Below, in pieces: positions 21,358-33,890 of a stretch of DNA of 64,000 bases (within the stretch, counting starts at the first letter, position 1; every line of letters begins with the position of its first letter). Both the position numbers and the translations under genes were made by a program. Under the pieces are notes generated by a model that saw only the letters and a program-made list of their open reading frames with translations, was not told the origin of the DNA and made no database searches. The stretch comes from a virus (lineage: Duplodnaviria > Caudoviricetes), in the IMG/VR virus record IMGVR_UViG_3300020336_000481, positions 64,001-128,000 of that record. One strand, given 5' to 3'.

Positions 21358-22308
21358 ATGGCACGTAAAGTAACAACAGGAATAGTCGGAGCTCCGATAT
21401 TAGGTAACTTAAATGTTAGAGGAAATCTTATTACCACAATTGGTACTAACGCTAATCTAACAATAAATCCAAACGGAAGTGGTACAACATTGTTTAGTGG
21501 GAATGCATCTGTTCAATCTGCTGGTAGTTTAAAACTAAATGACTCAGATAATTCAAACTTTATAGGACTTAAGGCTCCAGGAACTTTAAGTGGCGACTAT
21601 ACACTTACATGGCCTAATGGTTACGGAAGTGCTAACTCATTTTTGCAAACAGATGGCGCAGGAAACTTGACGTGGGGAACTGCAGCAATATCAATTACAA
21701 ATGACACAACAACAAACGCAAATCGTTATGTAACTTTTGTATCAACTGATAGTGGTAGCTTTACAGGAGTAAATGTAACAAGTAGTAAACTTTTATTTAA
21801 TCCATCAACTGGTGCATTAACAATTACTGGACCAATAACAGGTGGAACAGCTGCAAGTGATCAATTAATTTTAAGAAGTACTACTAGTGGATCAAAAGGA
21901 TATGTATACATTGATGAAACTACAGCAAGTTCGAGTACTACATCAGGCGCATTAAGAGTGGGCGGCGGCGTAGGTATTGGCGGAGCATGTTACGTTGGCG
22001 GAGCCTTATCAGCACAAAGTTTAACAGAAACATCAAGTATAGCACTTAAAGAAAACATTAATCCAATTGAGTCAGCTTTAGAAAAGTTGCAACAACTAAC
22101 AGGTGTAACATACGATAGAAAAAACGGTAGTACAAAAAATGAAGCAGGGTTAATTGCTGAACATGTAAATAACGTTTTACCTAATATTGTTACTAAAGAT
22201 ATGCAGGGAAATCCAGAAGGAATTAATTATACAAAATTAACAGCATATTTAGTTGAAGCAGTTAAGACACTCAAGAAGGAATTAGATGATTTAAAAGGGA
22301 GAAAGTAA
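21358..22308 (+). CDS. Tail fibre protein with C-terminal peptidase S74 intramolecular chaperone
   Basis: TSSIALKENI (Ser-x4-Lys dyad), GLIAEHV, INYTKLTAYLVEAVK and terminal coiled coil. Confidence 0.8.
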   Translation: MARKVTTGIVGAPILGNLNVRGNLITTIGTNANLTINPNGSGTTLFSGNASVQSAGSLKLNDSDNSNFIGLKAPGTLSGDYTLTWPNGYGSANSFLQTDGAGNLTWGTAAISITNDTTTNANRYVTFVSTDSGSFTGVNVTSSKLLFNPSTGALTITGPITGGTAASDQLILRSTTSGSKGYVYIDETTASSSTTSGALRVGGGVGIGGACYVGGALSAQSLTETSSIALKENINPIESALEKLQQLTGVTYDRKNGSTKNEAGLIAEHVNNVLPNIVTKDMQGNPEGINYTKLTAYLVEAVKTLKKELDDLKGRK

Positions 22309-23202: not shown

Positions 23203-25107
23203 ATGGCAAGACTTAATAGCACAACAATTAATGATACAGGTTACCTATCTATCCCTGTAGGAACAGAAGCACAACGAATAGCAACAGTTTCAGGCACTAC
23301 TGTATTTTTTACAAGTGCAGGTAATACTTCTTGGACTGTTCCTGCTAACGTTTACAACGTAGAAGTTTTAGTTGTAGGCGGTGGTGGAGGTGGTGGTTCA
23401 GACATGGGTGGCGGTGGAGGCGGCGGTGGAGTCGTTTATGACGGTACCTATGGCGTTACTCCTGGAGCCTCAATAAGTATTACAGTTGCTAGTGGCGGAT
23501 CAGGTGGTCCAGCAGGAGCTAACCAATCACGTGGTAGTAACGGTGGAAACTCAGTTTTTGGAAATATCACAGCATATGGCGGTGGTGGAGGTGCTAGTAG
23601 ACATTCATCAAACGGAGCACCGGCAAGTGACGGCGCAAGTGGTGGAGGCGGATCAGGCGGTAGAGGTAGCGGTACAACAAGTTACGGCGGTACTCCAGGT
23701 AAAGCAATTTATGACCAAGGTTATGAAGGTTCTCCATCAGGAACTACTTGGTATCCAGGCGGTGGCGGCGGTGCCGGCGGCGTAGGAAGACATTCACCAG
23801 GTGATGGCGGTCAAGGTGTTGTAAATAATATTACAGGATCAGACATATTCTGGGGTGGCGGTGGAGGCGGCTCTGGATATAGTGCTAGAGGCGGCAACGG
23901 CGGTATTGGTGGAGGCGGCGGTGGCGCCGTTCTCACTACATATGGTGGTATTGGTTACAATAATGGAGCCGGAGGTGGTGGCGGTGGTATAAACACTTGG
24001 GCACAAACTCCAGGCGGTGCCGGAGGTGCAAACACTGGTGGCGGTGGAGGTGGTGGAGCACACTACAACTCCAACAACGCTGGTGGTACTGGCGGATCAG
24101 GTATTGTTGTTGTAAAATATAACACAACTTCACAAGATGCTAATCCAGTTACTGGCGGAATACGTATTAATAGCGATAATCAAGAAGTTGAAGTTCTTTC
24201 AGGTACAGGAGATTGGCAAACACTTACAACTCCTTATAAAGCAAGACAAGTTATTACAACATCTTATATGATGGGCGGATATAAAAGTTCAGCTGCATGG
24301 AACAATGTTAATAGGACATCTCATGCAACAGACACTACACAAAATTTAGGTGACGGATCTTTAGAACGTTCATTTAATTATCAATCTGGTGCAACTGGCA
24401 AAGATATTGGTTACGTATTTGGAGCAGGTAATGGTCATGCTATACCTAGTAACTATATTATAGGTTATAACATGCGTACAGAATCTCAATATACAGGTAT
24501 GCAATCAAGAACATTATCAGGTAATAGTTATAATTCAGGAACTATACAAAAAGAATTTTATATGGCTTGGCACTCCGGCGGACAAAGTAGTAATACTGTA
24601 CACAAATATAATTTAATGAATGAAGTTATGGTTACTGAAACTGCTGGATTTTACACAGGCAACACATGGGGAATGTATTGGGAAAATGAAGGATCACTAT
24701 ATTGGGAAAATGATTCACGTTTAATGAATTTTTCAACAGGTGCATGGACATCATGGAGCGGTACACAACCTAGTAATCATCACCAACAAAAATCTTTAAT
24801 GGGGAAATTAAACTTTTGTTGGGCAGGTAATCAAGGTTCTTATAACGGTGGTAATAGCTTCCGTAGAACAAGTTTTGTTACAAGGCAAACTTCTGGTACA
24901 TATAGCAAGCCTCGAGCAAACTGTGGAGAAGAAAATTTTGCATGTGGTCAAGATTGGGGTTACATGATAGGTAATTATGATGGTGCTCAAAACAATGGAT
25001 CATTTAAATGGTATTACTATACGGAAACAGGTGTTAACGGAGGCACAACTATGGAGCCAAAAGGTAAGGCAGGAGCAAGTTCAGGCTTCTGTACATGGAG
25101 AGATTAA
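23203..25107 (+). CDS. Glycine-rich tail fibre/receptor-binding protein with C-terminal propeller-like domain
   Basis: VLVVGGGGGGG...GGSGIVVVKY glycine-rich domain; C-terminal domain paralogous to 25108..26133; ends WRD. Confidence 0.75.
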   Translation: MARLNSTTINDTGYLSIPVGTEAQRIATVSGTTVFFTSAGNTSWTVPANVYNVEVLVVGGGGGGGSDMGGGGGGGGVVYDGTYGVTPGASISITVASGGSGGPAGANQSRGSNGGNSVFGNITAYGGGGGASRHSSNGAPASDGASGGGGSGGRGSGTTSYGGTPGKAIYDQGYEGSPSGTTWYPGGGGGAGGVGRHSPGDGGQGVVNNITGSDIFWGGGGGGSGYSARGGNGGIGGGGGGAVLTTYGGIGYNNGAGGGGGGINTWAQTPGGAGGANTGGGGGGGAHYNSNNAGGTGGSGIVVVKYNTTSQDANPVTGGIRINSDNQEVEVLSGTGDWQTLTTPYKARQVITTSYMMGGYKSSAAWNNVNRTSHATDTTQNLGDGSLERSFNYQSGATGKDIGYVFGAGNGHAIPSNYIIGYNMRTESQYTGMQSRTLSGNSYNSGTIQKEFYMAWHSGGQSSNTVHKYNLMNEVMVTETAGFYTGNTWGMYWENEGSLYWENDSRLMNFSTGAWTSWSGTQPSNHHQQKSLMGKLNFCWAGNQGSYNGGNSFRRTSFVTRQTSGTYSKPRANCGEENFACGQDWGYMIGNYDGAQNNGSFKWYYYTETGVNGGTTMEPKGKAGASSGFCTWRD

Positions 25108-26133
25108 ATGGCTAATTTAAAAAATACCAATATTAATGATACAGGACATTTAAATTTACCAGCTGGCAATGTTACAGGTAACGGCGTAATTAGATATAGT
25201 GCAACAGAAGGTAAGTTACAAGTTTTTAATACTCAAACTGCAGGCGGAACTTGGGGTGATGCAACTCAACCATATTTAACAAGACAAATTATTACCACAG
25301 GTTATATTCACGGAGGGTATGCTTCGTCAGTTGTTTGGTCAAGAACAAACAAAAGTGAATTTGCTACAGACACAACAATAGATTTAGGTAATACACAGGA
25401 AGGTGCTCATAACTATAAAGCAAGTATGTGGGATAACACTACAAACTATACGTTTGGAGGACTTGCTAACGCTCACTGTGCTTCTAACAACACAGTAACA
25501 GCATATAATATGCGAACTGAAATAAGTTATACATCTGGATACACTAGATCAATGCCTTGGAGTACTAACAATCCTGCATGTTTCCAACATGAACACTATA
25601 GAGGATGGTTTACAGGCGGAGGAAGTGCTGCAACATATGAAATGGATTTTTCTACAGCAACATTATCTAATTTAGGTGTAAATTCAGGTACAAGTGGAGG
25701 TAGTTGGGGTATATCACACGAAAAATATAGCATCTATATGCCTGCTAACCAAGGGTTTATGCATTCAACAAAAAATTATTATTCAAGATCAGGTAGCAAT
25801 CCACAAGGTGATAAACATCAACACTGCGGACAATTTAAACACGCTTACCACATTGGAGGCCGCGAAAGTAATCCAAGTACTAACTGGCGTGAAACCAATA
25901 TGCTTACTGATGTAACAGCAGATACTATTGGAGCAAAACCAGCATACAGCGGTGAAGAAAATTCAATAGTTGGACAAGATTGGTTTTACGGAGTTGGATG
26001 GTATCAAGGATCACACGTTAATACTGCTTTCAAATTTGTATATGCTACTAGACAATCAACTAGTGGATATTCAAGTTTAGCTGCTAAAGGAGTAAACGGG
26101 CAAAGTTCAGCAACGATGTCTTGGAGAGACTAG
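25108..26133 (+). CDS. Receptor-binding-like protein, paralog of the C-terminal half of 23203..25107
   Basis: Shares INDTG.L.LP.G N-terminus, PY..RQ.ITT.Y..GGY, GEEN...GQDW and terminal WRD. Confidence 0.7.
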   Translation: MANLKNTNINDTGHLNLPAGNVTGNGVIRYSATEGKLQVFNTQTAGGTWGDATQPYLTRQIITTGYIHGGYASSVVWSRTNKSEFATDTTIDLGNTQEGAHNYKASMWDNTTNYTFGGLANAHCASNNTVTAYNMRTEISYTSGYTRSMPWSTNNPACFQHEHYRGWFTGGGSAATYEMDFSTATLSNLGVNSGTSGGSWGISHEKYSIYMPANQGFMHSTKNYYSRSGSNPQGDKHQHCGQFKHAYHIGGRESNPSTNWRETNMLTDVTADTIGAKPAYSGEENSIVGQDWFYGVGWYQGSHVNTAFKFVYATRQSTSGYSSLAAKGVNGQSSATMSWRD

Positions 26134-26176: not shown

Positions 26177-27052
26177 ATGACCAATGACAGACTAGTACAA
26201 TATCATTCAGAAAAATTCAACAGTCAAATAAATTCTGATGTAAGTATGCTAAATGACCAAGATAAAGATGTTGTTAGCAGATCAATTAATAAAGAATGGA
26301 CAAATCCTAAATTTAAATTAAAATGGTTTGTAGGTAATGCACAAATTACTCCGTATGCAAAATTTAGACAGTGGTTATTAGAAATTAAATCTAAAGAAGA
26401 GTCAATTGAAAATATGGAATATGAGATTGCTAAACATAATGTTGAAATTGAAAGATTTAAACGTATTGAAGAAGAGTCGCATGATGAATTAGATAAAAAG
26501 ATGGCTGGCATTGAAAAATGGAACAGTGAAAGACTTTTTTATACATCTAGAAGAAGATTACAAGATTGGTACTTAGAGCGTCAACAACTAATTGATCTTA
26601 TCAACGAATTTATGGAGTCAGAAGAAGGTACAGTTCCAGACGGTTCAGGCAGAACTTGGTGGGATATAATTGACACCGAAGAAGAAGATATATGGGAAAA
26701 AGAATATTGGACAAATAGGCTAGGAAAACAAGCAGCAACTGATATGATTTTTTACGGTAGAATTAACAGTGGTAACATGGATGCTATTTTACAATTACCA
26801 CCAGAACAACAAGCAGAAACATTATCACTAGCAGTTAACTTTAGTACTAAGTTACAAAGTTATCAAAATACGTTAGAAAATAAAGCACAAGAAGCAATGA
26901 AGATCGGCATAAATACAGATGATAAAGAATTATTATCACCAAAAGAAATGGCAGAGCAAATCGCATCACAGCCTGACAGAAAAACTGCTCAAAAAGAACT
27001 TGGTAATGATAAAAAACAAGGAGATTTATTAGATGAAGTATATGATATATGA
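26177..27052 (+). CDS. Hypothetical coiled-coil protein
   Basis: 291 aa, charged helical sequence; SD AGGAG. Confidence 0.75.
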   Translation: MTNDRLVQYHSEKFNSQINSDVSMLNDQDKDVVSRSINKEWTNPKFKLKWFVGNAQITPYAKFRQWLLEIKSKEESIENMEYEIAKHNVEIERFKRIEEESHDELDKKMAGIEKWNSERLFYTSRRRLQDWYLERQQLIDLINEFMESEEGTVPDGSGRTWWDIIDTEEEDIWEKEYWTNRLGKQAATDMIFYGRINSGNMDAILQLPPEQQAETLSLAVNFSTKLQSYQNTLENKAQEAMKIGINTDDKELLSPKEMAEQIASQPDRKTAQKELGNDKKQGDLLDEVYDI

Positions 27053-27578
27053 GACCATTGGTAGCGATGACGTTAGAAATGATCCATCAAAAATTAAAAT
27101 CATAGATTATTTCTGGCTTTACACCATCTCCGAAGTATCTGATGATTTCCCACATGAATGGTTAAAAGGTGAAGAAATAACTAGGCAAGTTGCTCATTCT
27201 TACTATTTTCCTGGAGCAGTAGAGAACGAAATTAGTATTATGCGTAGTACTACTAACCCAGAAGACATGATGGAACCTACAAGTTTAGGTGATAATGACT
27301 ACGAAAAAGTAAATTATGCACTTACTGTAGACGATAGATTAAATGCTGTTAATCTTATGAAAGCAACAATGCGTTTACATGCAACACATTACTGTAAAAA
27401 TGAAGCAGAACGTAATAGATTAATTGCAGCTCTAAATACATTATCACAGTTATCTGAAACACAGATGTTTATGGCAACATATTTTGATTGGGACTGTGCA
27501 TATACGTACAATAAGACTAAAACTAAAGAATTTGATTTTAGTGTTACTGAGCCCTGGGCAGCTACTCCAATAGAATAA
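27033..27578 (+). CDS. Hypothetical protein
   Basis: 181 aa, overlaps the upstream gene, SD AGGAG. Confidence 0.7.
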   Translation: MKYMIYETIGSDDVRNDPSKIKIIDYFWLYTISEVSDDFPHEWLKGEEITRQVAHSYYFPGAVENEISIMRSTTNPEDMMEPTSLGDNDYEKVNYALTVDDRLNAVNLMKATMRLHATHYCKNEAERNRLIAALNTLSQLSETQMFMATYFDWDCAYTYNKTKTKEFDFSVTEPWAATPIE

Positions 27579-27585
27579 AAATCAC

Positions 27586-27614
27586 TTGCATTGATATATT
27601 ACCTGTGCTATAAT
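27586..27614 (+). promoter_or_regulatory. Sigma70-type promoter TTGCAT-N17-TATAAT with extended -10 TG
   Basis: Direct reading; precedes SD GGAG and TTG start 27637; an AATAAGTA late-like motif overlaps the -10. Confidence 0.65.
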
Positions 27615-27636
27615 AAGTATAGTATAGGAGATACAT

Positions 27637-29310
27637 TTGCCAAAAAATATTTTTAGTGTTCCGTTAAATCCAAAATTAACGCCTGAGCAATTTATTACAT
27701 TTTATAACTTTTTATTAGAACATAAAGAGTATATTAGAGATGTATATTTTACCTGCAGGATTGCGCCTTTTATGAAAGATGCAATGGGTGATATTTTTGT
27801 TAATGATGATGATTACGATCATGCTATTGAACAAGCATTAGTAATTCAAAACAATCTTGGTATTCCGATAAGTGCAACATTTAATAATATACAGGTCCCT
27901 CCTAGCCAAAAAAACTTAGATATTTTTATTAAGAATTTTAAACCTCTTTATGATAGAGGTATTAAGGTTGCTACAATTCCACACACGCATTGGATGGCAA
28001 CTGGTCAAATTAAACGTGCTTTTCCAGAACTATATGTAAAAAATACAATTCTTAGAGATGTTAGAGTTGCTGCAGAAATTGTAAATTTAGCAAAATACGG
28101 ATTTGATTACATTAACTTAGACAGAGACTTAATGCGTGACAGGGATACATTGTTAAGGTTAGTTGAAGCTAAAAAATGGATTAAAGACAATTTAAATAAA
28201 GAAGTACATTATAGCTTACTAGCCAATGAAGGATGCAAGGGCAACTGTCCTATGATGGTTGAACACTTTGAATATAATAATACAAGAGAAGGCAATAGTC
28301 CTCAATATTTTAATGAACCTATTAGTAGGGTAAGTTGTCCTAAGTGGGATGTAGACGATCCTAGTGTACACTTAAAAACAGCAAATATTCCGCCTTGGAG
28401 AGAAGATTGGCAAGAGCTGTTAGATGACTTAGGAGTTGATGTATTTAAAATGCATGGTCGAGAAGCTGTTAGTAGATTATTTGAAACATTAGATATTATT
28501 AAGCGTTGGGCAAATAACGAAGATATATTATTTGATAATTTTGAAGAATACTTAAATGATAATAATTTAAAAGATAAACCTATTAATGCTTGGCGTAAAA
28601 AAATTAAAAACTGTAAGTTTGATTGTTGGGAATGTCATTTTTGTGATGACATTTATAAAATTAAATCAAAGAATGATCATACAGACTTAGTTAAGCATGT
28701 AGCACAAGCTATACTTGATAGCGGAGTTCCTAGTGTAAATATTAAAATACCAGGCTTGACATCTAGAAGAGTACAGACATTATTAAATTTAATTGCTAAA
28801 AAAAGTAATCTGTATATGGAACTTGGAAGTGGACTAGGTGCAACTTTGTGTAGTGTTCTTTACAAAAATAATATAAATGCTATTGCTATTGACAACTGGG
28901 AACAAAATATACAACCTGCTAGGAAAGACTTACCTAATTTACCAGATAATCAATTTGATATGTTTTATAAAAATGTTCAAGATAGTAAAGGTCCTAATGA
29001 TGTACAAATAATAAATGAAGATTTATTTTATGTTGATCCTTCTAAGTATAGTAATGTAGACTTCTGGTTTTATGACGGACCACATGATCAAGAAAGCACT
29101 GCAAAAGCTATTATAAGATATGCACCATGTTTAGCAGATCAATCTGTATTAATATTTGACGATGCTAATTGGCAAGGAGTAGTTGACGGTGCTAGAGAAG
29201 GTGTTAATCAAGCAGGTTTAGTGGTTAATTATGAAAAAATTGTGTTAGGAGACGAAGAAGACCCTAACGGATGGTGGAACGGTTTGTATATAATGGTGGT
29301 AGAAAAATGA
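27637..29310 (+). CDS. Peptidase-U32-family (putative Fe-S hydroxylase) domain fused to a class I SAM methyltransferase (Methyltransf_24-like)
   Basis: LLANEGCKGNCP...H...SC, DVFKMHGRE (U32 xxKIEGR-like), CKFDCWECHFC; C-terminal MELGSGLG, FYDGPH, LIFDDANW. Confidence 0.7.
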   Translation: MPKNIFSVPLNPKLTPEQFITFYNFLLEHKEYIRDVYFTCRIAPFMKDAMGDIFVNDDDYDHAIEQALVIQNNLGIPISATFNNIQVPPSQKNLDIFIKNFKPLYDRGIKVATIPHTHWMATGQIKRAFPELYVKNTILRDVRVAAEIVNLAKYGFDYINLDRDLMRDRDTLLRLVEAKKWIKDNLNKEVHYSLLANEGCKGNCPMMVEHFEYNNTREGNSPQYFNEPISRVSCPKWDVDDPSVHLKTANIPPWREDWQELLDDLGVDVFKMHGREAVSRLFETLDIIKRWANNEDILFDNFEEYLNDNNLKDKPINAWRKKIKNCKFDCWECHFCDDIYKIKSKNDHTDLVKHVAQAILDSGVPSVNIKIPGLTSRRVQTLLNLIAKKSNLYMELGSGLGATLCSVLYKNNINAIAIDNWEQNIQPARKDLPNLPDNQFDMFYKNVQDSKGPNDVQIINEDLFYVDPSKYSNVDFWFYDGPHDQESTAKAIIRYAPCLADQSVLIFDDANWQGVVDGAREGVNQAGLVVNYEKIVLGDEEDPNGWWNGLYIMVVEK

Positions 29311-30830
29311 ATAAACAAATAAAAGAATTAATTATTTTTGGTGGCGGAACCAGTGGTTGGTTGACAGCGTCATACTTGGTAAAAAATTTACAGTCTCCTT
29401 GTAAAATTACACTTATAGAAGACGTGTCAGCAGGACCTATTGGTGTAGGAGAAGGCACACAGCCTCTTACTGCAAAGTTTTTATTTGAATGTGGCATTGA
29501 TCCTAAAAGGTGGATGAAGCCAAGTAATGCAGCATTCAAATACGGAGTTGAGCTAACGGGCTGGAACGATATACCTTATTTTGTAGACAATGATACTCCT
29601 ACTAACTATATGGCTTCACAAATTGATTTTATTAATAGATATTTTCATAACCAACCTTACGAAGAATATGCAAAATGGCATCCTGCATATAGATTAGCTA
29701 AGAAAAATGTAAGTCCTAAATTAGAAACAAACTTAGATGTTAGTTTTGGAATAGGACCAGAGGGGTTTGGTGCTGTACATTTTAGTGCATATGATATTAT
29801 AGATACTCTTAAAAAAATAGTAGGTCCAAAAATTATTCATGTAGATGCTAAAATAGTACAAGCAAAAACTAACTCCGAAGGCATAAGTGATCTTATAGAC
29901 GATAAGGGTAACACATATACTGCAGATTTATTTTTAGATTGTAGTGGATTTAAAAGTGCATTGTTAGGCAAAGGAGTAAAAAGCGAATTTGTATCATATA
30001 AAGAACAAGGTTGGTTATTAAATGATAGTGCAGTAGCAATGCCAACACAATATACTAATCCTCAAGAAGAGTGCCATCCGTATACAAAAGCTACTACAAT
30101 GACAAGTGGTTGGCGTTGGACTATCCCAACATATAAAAGAATTGGAAACGGATACGTTTATAGTAGTGATTTCTTAAGTGAAGAAGAAGCTGAAAAAGAA
30201 TTAAGAGAATCAGTAAATGATTTTGAAACCCCTGTAAAACATTTAAAAATGAGATGTGGATCGCATAAAGAAGTTGCAAAGAAAAATGTAGTGGGCATTG
30301 GATTAGCGGCTGGATTTATTGAACCACTAGAAGCAACCGGCATAACATTTACAACATCTTTAGCTAAAAGTGTTACAGACTTATTAAATCTAAATGGAAT
30401 GAATTGGGACGATAAAGTACGTGATTTTATTAATCAAGGCTTTTACGAAATGTCAACAGAAATACTTGCATTTGTATGGAGTCATTATCACTTTAGCAAA
30501 AAAGATGATACTCCTTATTGGAAAGCAATAAGAGAACAAAAACTTACAGATTTGCCTTCCGACGCTCAACATATTATTTCACAGTATTGGCCAAAGCCTA
30601 AACCGTTTTTATTCTTTAGTCAGCAATCTATGTTTACTAGTATTCAATGGTGGTCAATGATTCATGCAGGAGGAGGTTATAATACTTCTATTAGTTTAAG
30701 TGAAAAAGAAAAAGATTATTTTGAGTATTTTATAAAAAATACTAACAACAGAATAGAAATGGCTGAGGAGTTATTTCCCAATCATTATGAATTTTTAAAG
30801 GAGTGGTATGACGAATGGAAAATAAGTTAG
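29307..30830 (+). CDS. Flavin-dependent (tryptophan-halogenase family) halogenase
   Basis: GGGTSGW FAD motif, GVGEGT, catalytic-Lys region AFKYG, GWRWTIP (WxWxIP), GFIEPLEATG; ATGA overlap with the upstream gene places the start at 29307. Confidence 0.9.
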   Translation: MNKQIKELIIFGGGTSGWLTASYLVKNLQSPCKITLIEDVSAGPIGVGEGTQPLTAKFLFECGIDPKRWMKPSNAAFKYGVELTGWNDIPYFVDNDTPTNYMASQIDFINRYFHNQPYEEYAKWHPAYRLAKKNVSPKLETNLDVSFGIGPEGFGAVHFSAYDIIDTLKKIVGPKIIHVDAKIVQAKTNSEGISDLIDDKGNTYTADLFLDCSGFKSALLGKGVKSEFVSYKEQGWLLNDSAVAMPTQYTNPQEECHPYTKATTMTSGWRWTIPTYKRIGNGYVYSSDFLSEEEAEKELRESVNDFETPVKHLKMRCGSHKEVAKKNVVGIGLAAGFIEPLEATGITFTTSLAKSVTDLLNLNGMNWDDKVRDFINQGFYEMSTEILAFVWSHYHFSKKDDTPYWKAIREQKLTDLPSDAQHIISQYWPKPKPFLFFSQQSMFTSIQWWSMIHAGGGYNTSISLSEKEKDYFEYFIKNTNNRIEMAEELFPNHYEFLKEWYDEWKIS

Positions 30831-31396
30831 CACTAGTTCATGCAGATTTATGGTCAAAAAGTAATGTTGGTACTATAGATCAACGACAAGATTTACTAAA
30901 ACAAATTCTTGCAGCAAAACAAGAAGGCAGTGTAGAAATTCAAGAAAGCAATGCAGGATGCTGGAGGTCAAGAGTAGAATATGAAAATTTAGATTGGCTG
31001 TTTACAGATCTTAAAACAATAGTTCAAAATGCTAGTGAATATTACTTTGATATTGACGAAGTATTTAGAAGTAGAGTGGTTGACAAACAAGTTAAATTTA
31101 GTTATTGGACAAACGTAAACGAATATAATGCATCTAATGTATTACATACACATAACAAAGACACGTTTACAGCTACATATTATCTACAAGGTAGTAGCAC
31201 AGGAACACTTAATTTTGTAAATCCTGCTAACATGACTTTAGAATGTTCAAACATATCACCAATGACGAGATCTGTTGCTGTTCAACCAGAAGATGGAGAT
31301 TTATTTGTGTGGCCAGGCTGGGTGCCACATGAAGTTGTACCTAATCCTAGTCAAAGGCAACGAATTAATATTGCATTTAGTATACAAGTATCATGA
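30815..31396 (+). CDS. Putative 2OG-Fe(II) oxygenase (TIGR02466-like)
   Basis: WTNVN...HTH...YYL...P..GDLFVWPGWVPHEV...RINIAF. Confidence 0.8.
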   Translation: MENKLALVHADLWSKSNVGTIDQRQDLLKQILAAKQEGSVEIQESNAGCWRSRVEYENLDWLFTDLKTIVQNASEYYFDIDEVFRSRVVDKQVKFSYWTNVNEYNASNVLHTHNKDTFTATYYLQGSSTGTLNFVNPANMTLECSNISPMTRSVAVQPEDGDLFVWPGWVPHEVVPNPSQRQRINIAFSIQVS

Positions 31397-32139
31397 TTTT
31401 TAAAAAGAAAAATAAAATAGAGTTTTTTTCAAAAGTTCCTGGAGTAGCGGAAACATTTCCAATTATTCCTACATCTAAGTTTAAACCTAAATGGGTAGAA
31501 GCATGTAAAAACGACTTTATAAGAAATAAAGGTTCTAAACAACCTAGTCACTTACAACTATGCCCTGGTATATTTGAAGTGTACAAATACGGGTACGTAG
31601 TTCCAATGTGGCATGATGTTACAATAAAAACTTTTAGAGATAGGGAAGATTTTGAAGCTGGAACTCCTAGTAAGCATTTAAATGAAATGTATAACGGAGA
31701 AGTAGTAGGTACACATCCTTATGAAATAACAAAATGGCTACCAAAAAGACCTTACAGTAAACATGCATTTGTTAAATTAAACACACCTTGGCATGTTATT
31801 GCTCCGCCTGGTGTAAAGTTTTTAGTTATACCTATCCCTTATGCTGACAATTATGACTATGAAAGTGCTATCGGAATCTTAGACCCTTCAGTAAGTACAG
31901 AAGTAAATATCCAAGCATACTGGAATGTAAATGAAGGAGAAAGAAAAATATTTGCAGGAACACCTATGATGCAACTTGTTCCTATAAGTGAAAAGTCGTT
32001 TGATCTAGATGTAAGAGATGCGACAGAGCATGATAAAATATGGTTAGACAAACGTACATACATATACATCTTTGGATACAAAGTTGATAAAGCAAAAATG
32101 AAAGAAGCATACTTAAAACATTTTGGAGGTAAAAAATGA
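31393..32139 (+). CDS. Hypothetical protein, DUF6065-like/dUTPase-like fold; paralog of 32551..33309
   Basis: CPGI, KLNTPW, PPG, GTPMMQLVP motifs. Confidence 0.6.
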   Translation: MIFKKKNKIEFFSKVPGVAETFPIIPTSKFKPKWVEACKNDFIRNKGSKQPSHLQLCPGIFEVYKYGYVVPMWHDVTIKTFRDREDFEAGTPSKHLNEMYNGEVVGTHPYEITKWLPKRPYSKHAFVKLNTPWHVIAPPGVKFLVIPIPYADNYDYESAIGILDPSVSTEVNIQAYWNVNEGERKIFAGTPMMQLVPISEKSFDLDVRDATEHDKIWLDKRTYIYIFGYKVDKAKMKEAYLKHFGGKK

Positions 32140-32558
32140 TACACGAATTAGTTACTAATGAATTAGTAATCTATACACAAGAACTAAGAGACGCAAAAGA
32201 TGATGTGTACAAACAACGTAAAGTACAGAAAGATAGGAAGAAAGCGGCAATGTGGTTACGCTTGTGGTTAGATCATCAAGAAATCTATTTAACATGGGAA
32301 GATGACAACGGAAATGATGTAAGTTCTATTGCAAGTACTACATGTGAATGGGAAGAACCCCCTATGTTTCCCACAACACCAATGTCAATAGAAATTATTC
32401 ATGGTGAAGAAGTAGAAGAAGATCAGTATATAAGATTTTATCAAAAACCTTCTGTTACACCTACAGCAGTACATATTGATAAGATTAAAAATTGGGTAAC
32501 AACTAATAACGATATTAAAAAACTGTCAGAAATATTTGGTAAAAATTTATATGCTTAA
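32136..32558 (+). CDS. Hypothetical protein
   Basis: SD GGAGG, ATGA overlap. Confidence 0.7.
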   Translation: MIHELVTNELVIYTQELRDAKDDVYKQRKVQKDRKKAAMWLRLWLDHQEIYLTWEDDNGNDVSSIASTTCEWEEPPMFPTTPMSIEIIHGEEVEEDQYIRFYQKPSVTPTAVHIDKIKNWVTTNNDIKKLSEIFGKNLYA

Positions 32559-33309
32559 TTTTTTTAGTAAAAAACCTAAATTAGAATTTGTTTCTTTAAT
32601 GCCAGAAGTTGCAGAATTAATGCCTATCATCCCTGCACGAGAACAAAATTTTAAATGGACAAAGTCTGCCTTAGATCATTACAAAAAAATTAAAAAAGAA
32701 ACTCCAGAGCAAGATTCATTTCATCACATAGCAAAGTGCCCAGGTATTTTAAATGTGATGAAGCAAGGATGGATACATAGAAGCTATCAAGATATATTTG
32801 TAAAAATAGAAAATGATCAGTTTGGTTGGAAAACACCTATAGACCAAAGTAAAGCAGATGTAGGTCATAAGTGGACATGGCCTTATCTTGGGTTACATGA
32901 TAAAGATATTATGGGTCCGTATTGTTTAGAAAGAGGAGCATATCATTCAATAGTAAAAATACAAACACCGTGGCTTGTTTATGTTCCTAAAGGATATCAA
33001 TTACTAATTACGCCTTTGCCGTATCCTGATATACATAAGTTTGAATCAACTACAGGATTTTTAAATGGTGGAGAAGGACCACAGTTTTTAAATGTACAAC
33101 TGTTTTGGTATGCACATAACGAAGAAGTTTTTATACCAAAAGGTACTCCGTTATGTCAATACCATTTAATTAAAAAAGAAGAAATAGAAGTTGAACAAAG
33201 AGCATACACAGAAAACGATTTAAAAAATTTACGTAAAAGAAATAATGTTGTAACTAGTAAGTTCAATAAAACATACAGTGATTTAAGGAAGATAACATGG
33301 AAAACTTAA
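32551..33309 (+). CDS. Hypothetical protein, DUF6065-like; paralog of 31393..32139
   Basis: KCPGI, KIQTPW, PKG, GTPLCQY; ATG at 32551 aligns with the paralog's N-terminus. Confidence 0.6.
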   Translation: MLNFFSKKPKLEFVSLMPEVAELMPIIPAREQNFKWTKSALDHYKKIKKETPEQDSFHHIAKCPGILNVMKQGWIHRSYQDIFVKIENDQFGWKTPIDQSKADVGHKWTWPYLGLHDKDIMGPYCLERGAYHSIVKIQTPWLVYVPKGYQLLITPLPYPDIHKFESTTGFLNGGEGPQFLNVQLFWYAHNEEVFIPKGTPLCQYHLIKKEEIEVEQRAYTENDLKNLRKRNNVVTSKFNKTYSDLRKITWKT

Positions 33310-33890
33310 CTTTAGAAGACTTTATCTTAGTAAAAAAGAATGCAATTAGTCCAGCAGATTGCAGAAAAGTTACTAATTATTTTGACGAAATGCAAAAATT
33401 AAACTTGACGTTTGATAGGCATCAGTTGCGTGATAGTCCTGGACATGAAAAGAAAGACGAAACATGTTTTCCAATGGAGCCTGATACATTAGCATTGCCA
33501 AAAACACATCCTGTATTACATACTATTGTAACTTCTGTAAAAGAAGCAATGAGTGACTATATTGTTGAATATAGTATTTTACAAGATACAAGTAGTCACG
33601 GAATTAGAAGTTGTAGAATACAAAAAACAGCAAAAGGCGGCGGATATCATAGATGGCATTTTGAAAGCGAAGGATTACCTTCATGTAATAGATTTTTAGT
33701 TTTTTCAATATACTTAAATAATGTTATGCAAGGTGGCGAAACAGAATTTTTATATCAGTCTAAAAGAATTGAGCCAGAAGAAGGCACACTACTAATATGG
33801 CCTGCTGGTTTTACACACGTACACCGAGGTAATCCTCCACTTAGTGGTAATAAATATATAGCAACAGGTTGGATTGAATACTTTGAATAA
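33297..33890 (+). CDS. 2OG-Fe(II) oxygenase (prolyl-4-hydroxylase-like)
   Basis: GGGYHRWHFE...YLN...GGETEF...WPAGFTHVHRG...KYIATGW. Confidence 0.85.
   Translation: MENLTLEDFILVKKNAISPADCRKVTNYFDEMQKLNLTFDRHQLRDSPGHEKKDETCFPMEPDTLALPKTHPVLHTIVTSVKEAMSDYIVEYSILQDTSSHGIRSCRIQKTAKGGGYHRWHFESEGLPSCNRFLVFSIYLNNVMQGGETEFLYQSKRIEPEEGTLLIWPAGFTHVHRGNPPLSGNKYIATGWIEYFE

Follow-up and report, generated by a model that had tools for sequence, protein, structure and literature searches.

This report describes a gene of a T4-like cyanophage whose product joins a divergent U32-type domain to an O-methyltransferase-like domain. The gene lies in a window of 64,000 nucleotides (nt), positions 64,001 to 128,000 of the IMG/VR record IMGVR_UViG_3300020336_000481 (Duplodnaviria; Caudoviricetes). 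The window is a low-GC fragment of the phage genome, and the record itself is 147 kb long with an estimated completeness of about 42%. The open reading frame (ORF) occupies 27637..29310 on the plus strand, exactly the interval given in the initial annotation of this DNA. It encodes 557 amino acids (aa), starts with TTG and stops with TGA according to the ORF listing of the window, and is preceded by AGGAG 5 nt 5' of the start codon. In PHROGs, the whole protein matches phrog_1458 over its full length (E 6e-174) and the N-terminal part matches phrog_36869; neither family has an assigned function. A U32 branch that is invisible to Pfam, has an altered pattern of metal ligands, is fused to an O-methyltransferase and is carried by viruses is new. 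Published accounts confine U32 proteins almost entirely to bacteria and archaea and divide them into twelve subfamilies, with only three functions assigned (PMC10990095), and the literature searched contained no description of them in viruses. Also new here are a controlled profile-profile test of the family, the mapping of its cysteines to published motifs, an obligate partner gene, a census of fused and split forms, and relatives in jumbo phages and bacteria.

The protein is built from two domains. Residues 1-365 (27637..28731, plus strand) form an eight-stranded TIM barrel with a helical, Cys-rich tail, as assigned with Foldseek, VIA-align and hhalign. The remainder (28732..29307, plus strand) is a class I S-adenosylmethionine (SAM) methyltransferase domain of the Methyltransf_24 family, the sole Pfam match of the fusion protein (residues 395-509); Pfam returned nothing over the first 365 residues. 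An AlphaFold (AF2) model of the full chain, made from a 77-sequence alignment, has a predicted local distance difference test (pLDDT) score of 94.7 and a predicted template modelling (pTM) score of 0.87. The pTM of the whole chain suggests a fixed packing between the two domains. A model of the N-terminal domain made from a 62-sequence alignment has a pLDDT of 93.3, and both models show the eight-stranded alpha/beta barrel.

The initial annotation had proposed that the N-terminal part is a U32 TIM barrel, and the fold comparison set beforehand as the check on this proposal agrees with it. A Foldseek search with the domain model returned as its first match Mk0906 (5d88), the only solved U32 structure in the copies of the PDB searched (E 9e-7, template modelling score 0.69). 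The same structure ranked first in an exhaustive VIA-align comparison against 48,161 chains (Z 16.8, root-mean-square deviation 3.3 A, 228 of 247 residues aligned), in which the next folds (MTHFR, F420/luciferase-like and GH18) reached at most 12.9 Z. The match spans model residues 1-281 at 8% identity. Unlike Mk0906, the phage domain adds a long excursion between strands 7 and 8 (about residues 197-268) and a helical C-terminal tail with four Cys. Searches of the PDB by phmmer and with the family profile gave no U32 match for the domain, the fusion protein did not match PF16325, and hhalign against a single UbiU or UbiV sequence was not significant. Homology was found by comparing profiles, with a U32 profile made from 31 PF01136 proteins of E. 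coli (TrhP, RlhA, UbiU) and sampled genomes. Against this profile, the family alignment reached 92.4% probability (E 5e-7) over 143 columns, in a register that follows barrel strands 2-6 (DIYFT/AVYxG, SxTFNN/YvtlNt, FPxxxxKNT/PxlpiHaSTQ, INLDRxLxRD/vVLaRELS). Bacterial and phage sub-alignments independently reached 90% and 79%, and control runs with reversed profiles and unrelated alignments gave 0.1-0.5%. E. coli TrhP is recovered with the hidden Markov model (HMM) of the family (22.3 bits), the same model and, weakly, PF01136 also match two bridging ORFs (L056 and L057), and the nearest clusters in the ESM atlas carry the name Peptidase U32. The fold match and the controlled profile-profile homology place the N-terminal domain within the U32 superfamily, as a deeply divergent member beyond the reach of the Pfam model.

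Seven Cys (C200, C204, C234, C326, C330, C333 and C336) are invariant in the 77-sequence alignment, which extends to about 25% identity. In the same alignment K271, G274 and R275 are conserved at 90% or more and E198 is near-invariant. These residues fall into four motifs on the plus strand. NEGCKGNCP (residues 197-205; 28225..28251) carries the putative iron-sulphur (Fe-S) ligands C200 and C204, and RVSCPKW (residues 231-237; 28327..28347) carries C234 and the conserved W237. FKMHGRE (residues 270-276; 28444..28464) is the counterpart of the lKIEGR block of U32 proteins in a low-confidence alignment, and CKFDCWECHFC (residues 326-336; 28612..28644), of the form Cx3Cx2Cx2C, lies in helices after the barrel. 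In the modelled secondary structure, barrel strand 7 is closely followed by C200 and C204, and strand 8 carries the K-x-x-G-R block, a layout that would correspond to that of TrhP. Three of these motifs (NEGCKGNCP, KMHGRE and CKFDCWECHFC) had been pointed out in the initial annotation and are present, and the first of them proved to be only partly U32-like. The family pattern is C200x3C204x29C234 with a separate C326x3Cx2Cx2C336, whereas the ligand motifs published for U32 proteins read Cx6Cx15Cx3/4C in general, with Cx6Cx16Cx38C for UbiU and CxnCx12Cx3C for UbiV (10.1101/587956). The spacings of UbiU and UbiV are themselves non-canonical, which indicates that ligand positions drift within the U32 family. 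In a low-confidence extension of the hhalign alignment, C200 and C204 fall on the first two U32 Cys (the GALC..GRC pair) with three residues deleted, C234 falls on the fourth (aCRW against SCPKW), and VDVFKMHGR falls on V..lKIEGR. TrhP requires E162, C170 and C177 (PMC6599085). At the position of E162 the phage protein has S193 or Y192, and the conserved residues are instead E198, two positions before C200, E209 and H210. The Cx3Cx2Cx2C block is new relative to canonical U32 proteins and is kept in the bacterial and Ralstonia-phage homologues. It could donate a fourth ligand or make up a metal site of its own, for Zn or Fe-S. Judged from the conserved residues, Fe-S binding by the N-terminal domain is plausible.

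The degenerate form of the canonical U32 catalytic signature would also fit an arrangement in which the methyltransferase alone is catalytic and the U32-like domain is a redox-inactive, metal-stabilised binding or scaffold module, recognising the substrate together with a partner protein described below. The four Cys packed into 11 residues might form a structural Zn site, and weak zinc-finger matches were obtained. The conservation of the barrel speaks against such a role. At the C-terminal end of every one of the eight strands, polar residues (D35, N83/N84, H116, K135/N136/T137, D162/R163, E198 and K271/H273/R275) show conservation of at least 97%, the pattern that an active TIM-barrel site shows. 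The U32-like domain also persists without the methyltransferase in Ralstonia phage RP31 and in bacteria. A pure scaffold is considered quite unlikely.

The identification of the C-terminal part as a SAM methyltransferase was confirmed. PF13578 (Methyltransf_24) scores 31.9 bits against a cut-off of 26.3 (E 2.6e-7), and the motifs MELGSGLG, FYDGPHD and FDDANW are present. SAM-binding motif I (E395-x-G397-x-x-x-G401) is encoded at 28816..28839 and the acidic residue after strand 2, D419, within 28885-28899, both on the plus strand. FYDGPHD (residues 478-484) and FDDANW (residues 507-512), encoded within 29068..29172 on the same strand, hold the candidate metal or catalytic residues D480, H483, D508, D509 and N511. 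Conservation of 97% or more was found among 72 non-identical full-length sequences for E395, G397, G401, D419, Y479-D480-G481-x-H483, D508-D509-A510-N511-W512, K534 and W546-W547-N548-G549, which indicates an active enzyme under selection.

When the full model was compared by VIA-align, the top 24 matches to the methyltransferase domain (ranks 1-24 apart from 5d88) were all O-methyltransferases, tied within 1 Z (Z 15.6-16.8). The best are almost all metal-dependent (5x7f, S. avermitilis COMT, TomG, MeT1, SafC, Synechocystis 3cbg and Rv0187), and TrmR (5zw3) is among the matches at Z 15.8; sugar O-methyltransferases follow, with RNA or C-methyltransferases at Z of about 15. The domain shares with the COMT/CCoAOMT class (5x7f, 8c9s, TomG, SafC, 3cbg, Rv0187; Z 16-16.8) the same Rossmann fold, a conserved motif I and candidate Asp/Asp/Asn-type residues at the metal positions. 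It differs from that class in belonging by sequence to Methyltransf_24 rather than Methyltransf_3 (PF01596), and in 10 of 50 structural alignments approximately residues 215-260 of the U32-like domain replace the N-terminal lid helices of the class. The only methyltransferase in the PDB reached by a sequence profile was 3ntv (E 0.024). In this weak alignment FYDGPH falls on FIDAAK and DD on DN, giving a candidate triad of D480, D508 and D509/N511. The structural homologue nearest to TrmR is 3NTV; the Mg ligands of TrmR itself are D133, D159 and N160 (PMC6158493). By structure and active-site layout the domain appears O-methyltransferase-like, and by sequence it lies outside the TrmR family.

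These structural neighbours could also be taken to indicate a carbohydrate substrate. A TIM-barrel enzyme and a sugar O-methyltransferase would then remodel a glycan on the fibres or on the host surface, and the likeness to U32 proteins would be structural only. MeT1, SpnH, NovP and MycF lie near the methyltransferase domain (Z 15-16.5), GH18 and GH5 enzymes occur among the generic TIM-barrel matches (Z 11-12), and fibre genes adjoin the locus. However, 5d88 leads all glycosidases by 4 Z units, the homology detected between profiles is particular to U32, seven invariant Cys are atypical of glycosidases, and no glycosidase catalytic motif was seen. A glycan-directed enzyme is given little chance, and both it and the scaffold arrangement are disfavoured because of the specific U32 homology and the active-site-like conservation of the barrel.

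The distribution of the family was examined in phages, metagenomes and bacteria. By tblastn, the protein was found in 126 of 50,697 phage records, comprising 123 cultured cyanomyoviruses and three Ralstonia jumbo phages, and all 126 records annotate it as hypothetical. Carriers include S-RIM2, S-RIM12, S-CAM4, S-ShM2/S-RIM14, Syn19/Syn2/Syn33, P-HM2, P-RSM1/3, MbCM1 and S-H25, and the cyanomyovirus copies correspond to T4-like gene cluster (T4-GC) 354. Such an enzyme had been called unexpected in a phage; this view was not upheld, as the gene is widespread in cyanomyoviruses rather than rare. A large protein collection contained 1968 relatives among 8000 candidates scored, and at least 589 IMG/VR contigs carry relatives. 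Marine and estuarine metagenomes contain the exact DNA in at least 10 studies dated 2013 to 2025, and the evidence of transcription consists of index matches in three metatranscriptome runs, which covered 38-84% of the sampled words. For the N-terminal domain alone there are 266 representatives of clusters at 50% identity, and many of these are stand-alone proteins with lengths of 330-450 aa. Stand-alone homologues were found in Dehalococcoidales (three copies in one Dehalogenimonas), Pirellulaceae, Brocadiia, Phycisphaerae, Arcobacter and others, and their bacterial hosts are mostly anaerobic. The gene context of the bacterial homologues is heterogeneous.

Among viruses the fused form predominates (156 of 160 viral loci fetched), and three of the four split loci retain a separate methyltransferase ORF. 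The most distant relatives lack a methyltransferase, which indicates that methylation is an add-on and not intrinsic to the family. Two members, P0233 and P0237, carry N-terminal extensions of about 170 aa that weakly match the first third of the U32-like domain (E 1e-4 and 6e-5). These extensions are partial tandem duplications and recall two-domain U32 proteins such as RlhA. The N-terminal extensions of P0134, P0233 and P0237 were also considered as a fused form of the partner protein; they are unrelated to it, and no Rosetta-stone fusion is provided by them.

The partner gene (26177..27052, plus strand) encodes a Cys-free protein of 291 aa that belongs to phrog_1409 and T4-GC 353. The protein looks helical when its sequence is inspected by eye, and no match to it was found in Pfam, the PDB or the ESM atlas. 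Of 72 testable viral loci, 71 have the partner gene upstream of the U32-like gene in the same orientation, and in P-HM2 it is directly upstream. In RP31, ORF137 is a phrog_1409 homologue (blastp 1.7e-20, HMM 1e-32) and lies directly upstream of a gene for the N-terminal domain only. Members of phrog_1409 occur in 126 phage records, with a breakdown (77/38/8/3) identical to that of the U32-like domain, and were absent from the bacterial loci examined. Since the pair has been kept between cyanomyoviruses and a Ralstonia jumbo phage and the two phylogenetic profiles match, the association is read as a functional partnership. A partnership of this kind would fit U32 biology, where UbiU needs UbiV and TrhP1 needs TrhP2.

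RlhA, TrhP and the UbiU/UbiV pair are Fe-S-dependent, O2-independent and prephenate-dependent hydroxylation factors, and the hydroxylations that involve UbiU and UbiV are followed by O-methylation of their products. For UbiU/V, prephenate was demonstrated to donate the oxygen (PMC10990095). In B. subtilis, the operon yrrM (trmR, COMT-like)-yrrN (trhP2)-yrrO (trhP1) converts U34 in tRNA to ho5U34 and then to mo5U34 (PMC6599085). This precedent, with the same two types of activity, is the strongest argument for the interpretation that is favoured here. The phage protein would be a two-domain tailoring enzyme that acts with the phrog_1409 protein and installs a methoxy group by U32-type hydroxylation followed by O-methylation, an interpretation to which an even chance is assigned. 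A [4Fe-4S] cluster would be bound by C200, C204, C234 and a fourth ligand supplied by the Cx3Cx2Cx2C block or by E209/H210. The N-terminal domain would then hydroxylate an sp2 (aromatic or heteroaromatic) carbon without O2, and the C-terminal domain, predicted to be a metal-dependent member of the COMT/CCoAOMT/TrmR class, would use SAM to methylate the new hydroxyl, yielding the methoxy group. The phrog_1409 protein may take part as a member of a complex, in the manner of UbiV with UbiU or TrhP2 with TrhP1.

The resemblance to the known systems is partial. As with TrhP1-TrhP2 and TrmR, a U32-type domain is genetically linked to a COMT-like O-methyltransferase with an actual or putative Mg site, by an operon in B. 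subtilis and within one chain here, and the Z of TrmR 5zw3 differs from those of the best structural matches by no more than 1. Unlike in that system, one polypeptide carries both activities, its cysteines follow Cx3C..x29..C with Cx3Cx2Cx2C rather than Cx6Cx15Cx3C, Glu is missing at the E162 position, and PF01136, PF16325 and PF01596 are unmatched. The partner is also an unrelated phrog_1409 protein, and the viral gene stands beside fibre genes rather than translation genes. In the UbiU-UbiV system (with UbiT, and then UbiG) a U32-type factor likewise acts with a second protein and the hydroxylated products are then O-methylated. Unlike UbiV, the Cys-free phage partner is no paralogue of the U32 proteins; the methyltransferase resembles COMT and not UbiG, and no SCP2/UbiT-like gene was seen.

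Several points weigh against hydroxylation followed by methylation. The alignment over the Cys region is of low confidence. The canonical Cx6Cx15Cx3/4C motif with Glu at -8 from the first Cys is not kept in the family, and the third U32 Cys has no counterpart. PF01136 and NCBIfam did not match the fusion protein or 20 distant relatives, PF01136 was touched by only one of 62 family members (E 0.033), and the Dehalogenimonas genome with three homologues had zero PF01136 matches. PF01596, the family of TrmR and COMT, went unmatched up to E 10 across the whole, about 42% complete phage record, and the structural class of the methyltransferase domain includes the sugar O-methyltransferases named above. 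No chorismate mutase was found in the phage fragment either; both absences mean little in a record of this completeness. The N-terminal-only form of RP31 occurs with no detectable methyltransferase homologue, and bacterial homologues also occur without a methyltransferase, which indicates that the two activities may be directed at different atoms. Finally, in vitro hydroxylation has yet to be demonstrated for any U32 protein (PMC10990095). The proposal of hydroxylation followed by methylation, as made in the initial annotation, keeps its precedent in the trmR-trhP2-trhP1 operon and loses the support of the Pfam family, of the canonical Cys/Glu signature and of a methyltransferase in the distant relatives.

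The genes around the fusion gene form a tailoring cassette. Downstream lies a flavin-dependent (Trp-type) halogenase (29307..30830, plus strand; PF04820, E 7e-86), which is immediately downstream in 48 of 75 loci. Its ATG overlaps the TGA of the fusion gene (A-ATG-A, 29307-29310), which implies translational coupling of the two genes; the listed start of the halogenase ORF at 29271 is probably too early. A 2-oxoglutarate (2OG)-Fe(II) oxygenase follows (30815..31396, plus strand; PF13759, E 6e-16) and is present in 46 loci. The cassette is extended by two paralogous proteins of phrog_7084 (31393-32139 and 32536-33309), a family without an assigned function that co-occurs in 42 of the 80 related loci, and by another 2OG-Fe(II) oxygenase (33297-33890; PF13640). 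The oxygenases that had been reported beside the gene are present, and the halogenase adds to them. Upstream are two Gly/Tyr/Trp-rich fibre-module proteins of phrog_1417 (23203..26133, plus strand), the first of which also matches Gly_rich_2; fibre-module genes are found upstream in 62-68 of 80 loci. Farther upstream, a fibre-module protein (21358-22308) has a C-terminal Peptidase_S74 intramolecular chaperone domain, which marks the block as a genuine fibre or spike module. In RP31, ORF139 weakly matches the phrog_1417 family (E 2.4e-4). Between the partner and the fusion gene of the window lies a small ORF of 181 aa (27033..27578, plus strand) that has no family match, is variable and occurs in 32 of 72 loci. 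The segment 5' of the TTG start (27585-27636) contains TTGCAT and TATAAT separated by 17 nt, followed by the AGGAG. This pair was rejected as a promoter: it is below the scanner threshold, its -35 element matches at 3/6 positions, and promoter-like sites are not enriched in the region.

The same two-step chemistry could act on nucleic acid, as a viral analogue of TrhP with TrmR or of an RlhA-like enzyme, making 5-methoxy-uridine or -cytidine in tRNA or rRNA of the host or the phage, or a 5-methoxypyrimidine in phage DNA. The characterised U32 proteins other than those of quinone synthesis all act on C5 of RNA pyrimidines, TrmR shares its operon with U32 genes and lies close to the domain in structure, and the one methyltransferase reached by profile, 3ntv, is also the closest TrmR homologue. 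Against such a target, the window has no tRNA gene, PF01596 is unmatched, the cassette contains a halogenase, 2OG oxygenases and fibre genes rather than nucleotide or translation genes, and the phrog_1409 partner is without counterpart in RNA pathways. A nucleic acid target is thought unlikely. TrmR binds tRNA with the basic residues R86, R90, K136, R178 and R181. Net charge was tried as a test of RNA binding and was rejected as non-discriminating, since the isoelectric point of the fusion protein is 5.2 and TrhP is also acidic (5.8).

Among possible substrates of the hydroxylase/O-methyltransferase, aromatic residues of proteins or peptides, namely those of the neighbouring fibre proteins, are ranked first with roughly one chance in three; RNA or DNA pyrimidines and small aromatics or quinones come after them. 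The ranking is tentative and follows from the fibre-adjacent cassette, the coupled halogenase and the neighbours of the family in Dehalogenimonas. Two paralogues there adjoin B12-binding radical-SAM proteins of 714-715 aa with a C-terminal PqqD domain, the recognition domain of ribosomally synthesized and post-translationally modified peptide (RiPP) pathways (L015:8364-10505 and L017:3744-5888). Both loci are in one genome; they were counted as one event and serve as a lead only. Reductive dehalogenase genes are found near these loci. In its most specific form, the proposal would have the fusion protein and its partner act as an O2-independent, prephenate-type hydroxylase/O-methyltransferase that post-translationally methoxylates aromatic residues of the adjacent Gly/Tyr/Trp-rich fibre proteins, in one cassette with the halogenase and the 2OG oxygenases. 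The chance of this full version being correct is small. If true, it would be a dedicated tailoring system for receptor-binding proteins and the first protein-directed U32 enzyme.

The family constitutes a thirteenth U32 branch that is abundant in marine viruses of oxygenic phototrophs and also present in jumbo phages and mostly anaerobic bacteria. The covalent tie to an O-methyltransferase means that the expected product would be a stable, mass-tagged methoxy group, which could ease the trapping of U32 chemistry. The co-occurring partner and the coupled halogenase are starting points for finding the target. A virion fibre protein as target would be a new kind of phage host-range chemistry, and RNA or DNA as target would carry a new viral epitranscriptomic or epigenetic mark.

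Several smaller observations concern the link between the fusion gene and the fibre genes. In S-ShM2 (L071, 236-4288), a 6-kb insertion with three 2OG-Fe(II) oxygenases, petE and gnd separates T4-GC 353 from T4-GC 354. The linkage of the fusion gene to fibre genes is not absolute in view of this insertion, and the junction between partner and fusion gene seems to be a hot spot for the insertion of auxiliary genes. One protein that combines a U32-like domain with a DUF7483 fibre domain (P0125) was considered as a link to the virion and rejected as a probable chimera. It is a singleton on a contig of 1986 bp, the match to its nearest relatives (92% identity) is confined to residues 1-374, and methyltransferase fusions make up 76 of the 80 loci that were fetched with it. 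Three contigs of marine metagenome-assembled genomes binned as Pelagibacterales, Thaumarchaeota and Chloroflexota (L023, L028 and L029) carry a U32-like gene at about 35% identity. These contigs also weakly match the fibre-like phrog_1417 and may be mis-binned viral contigs.

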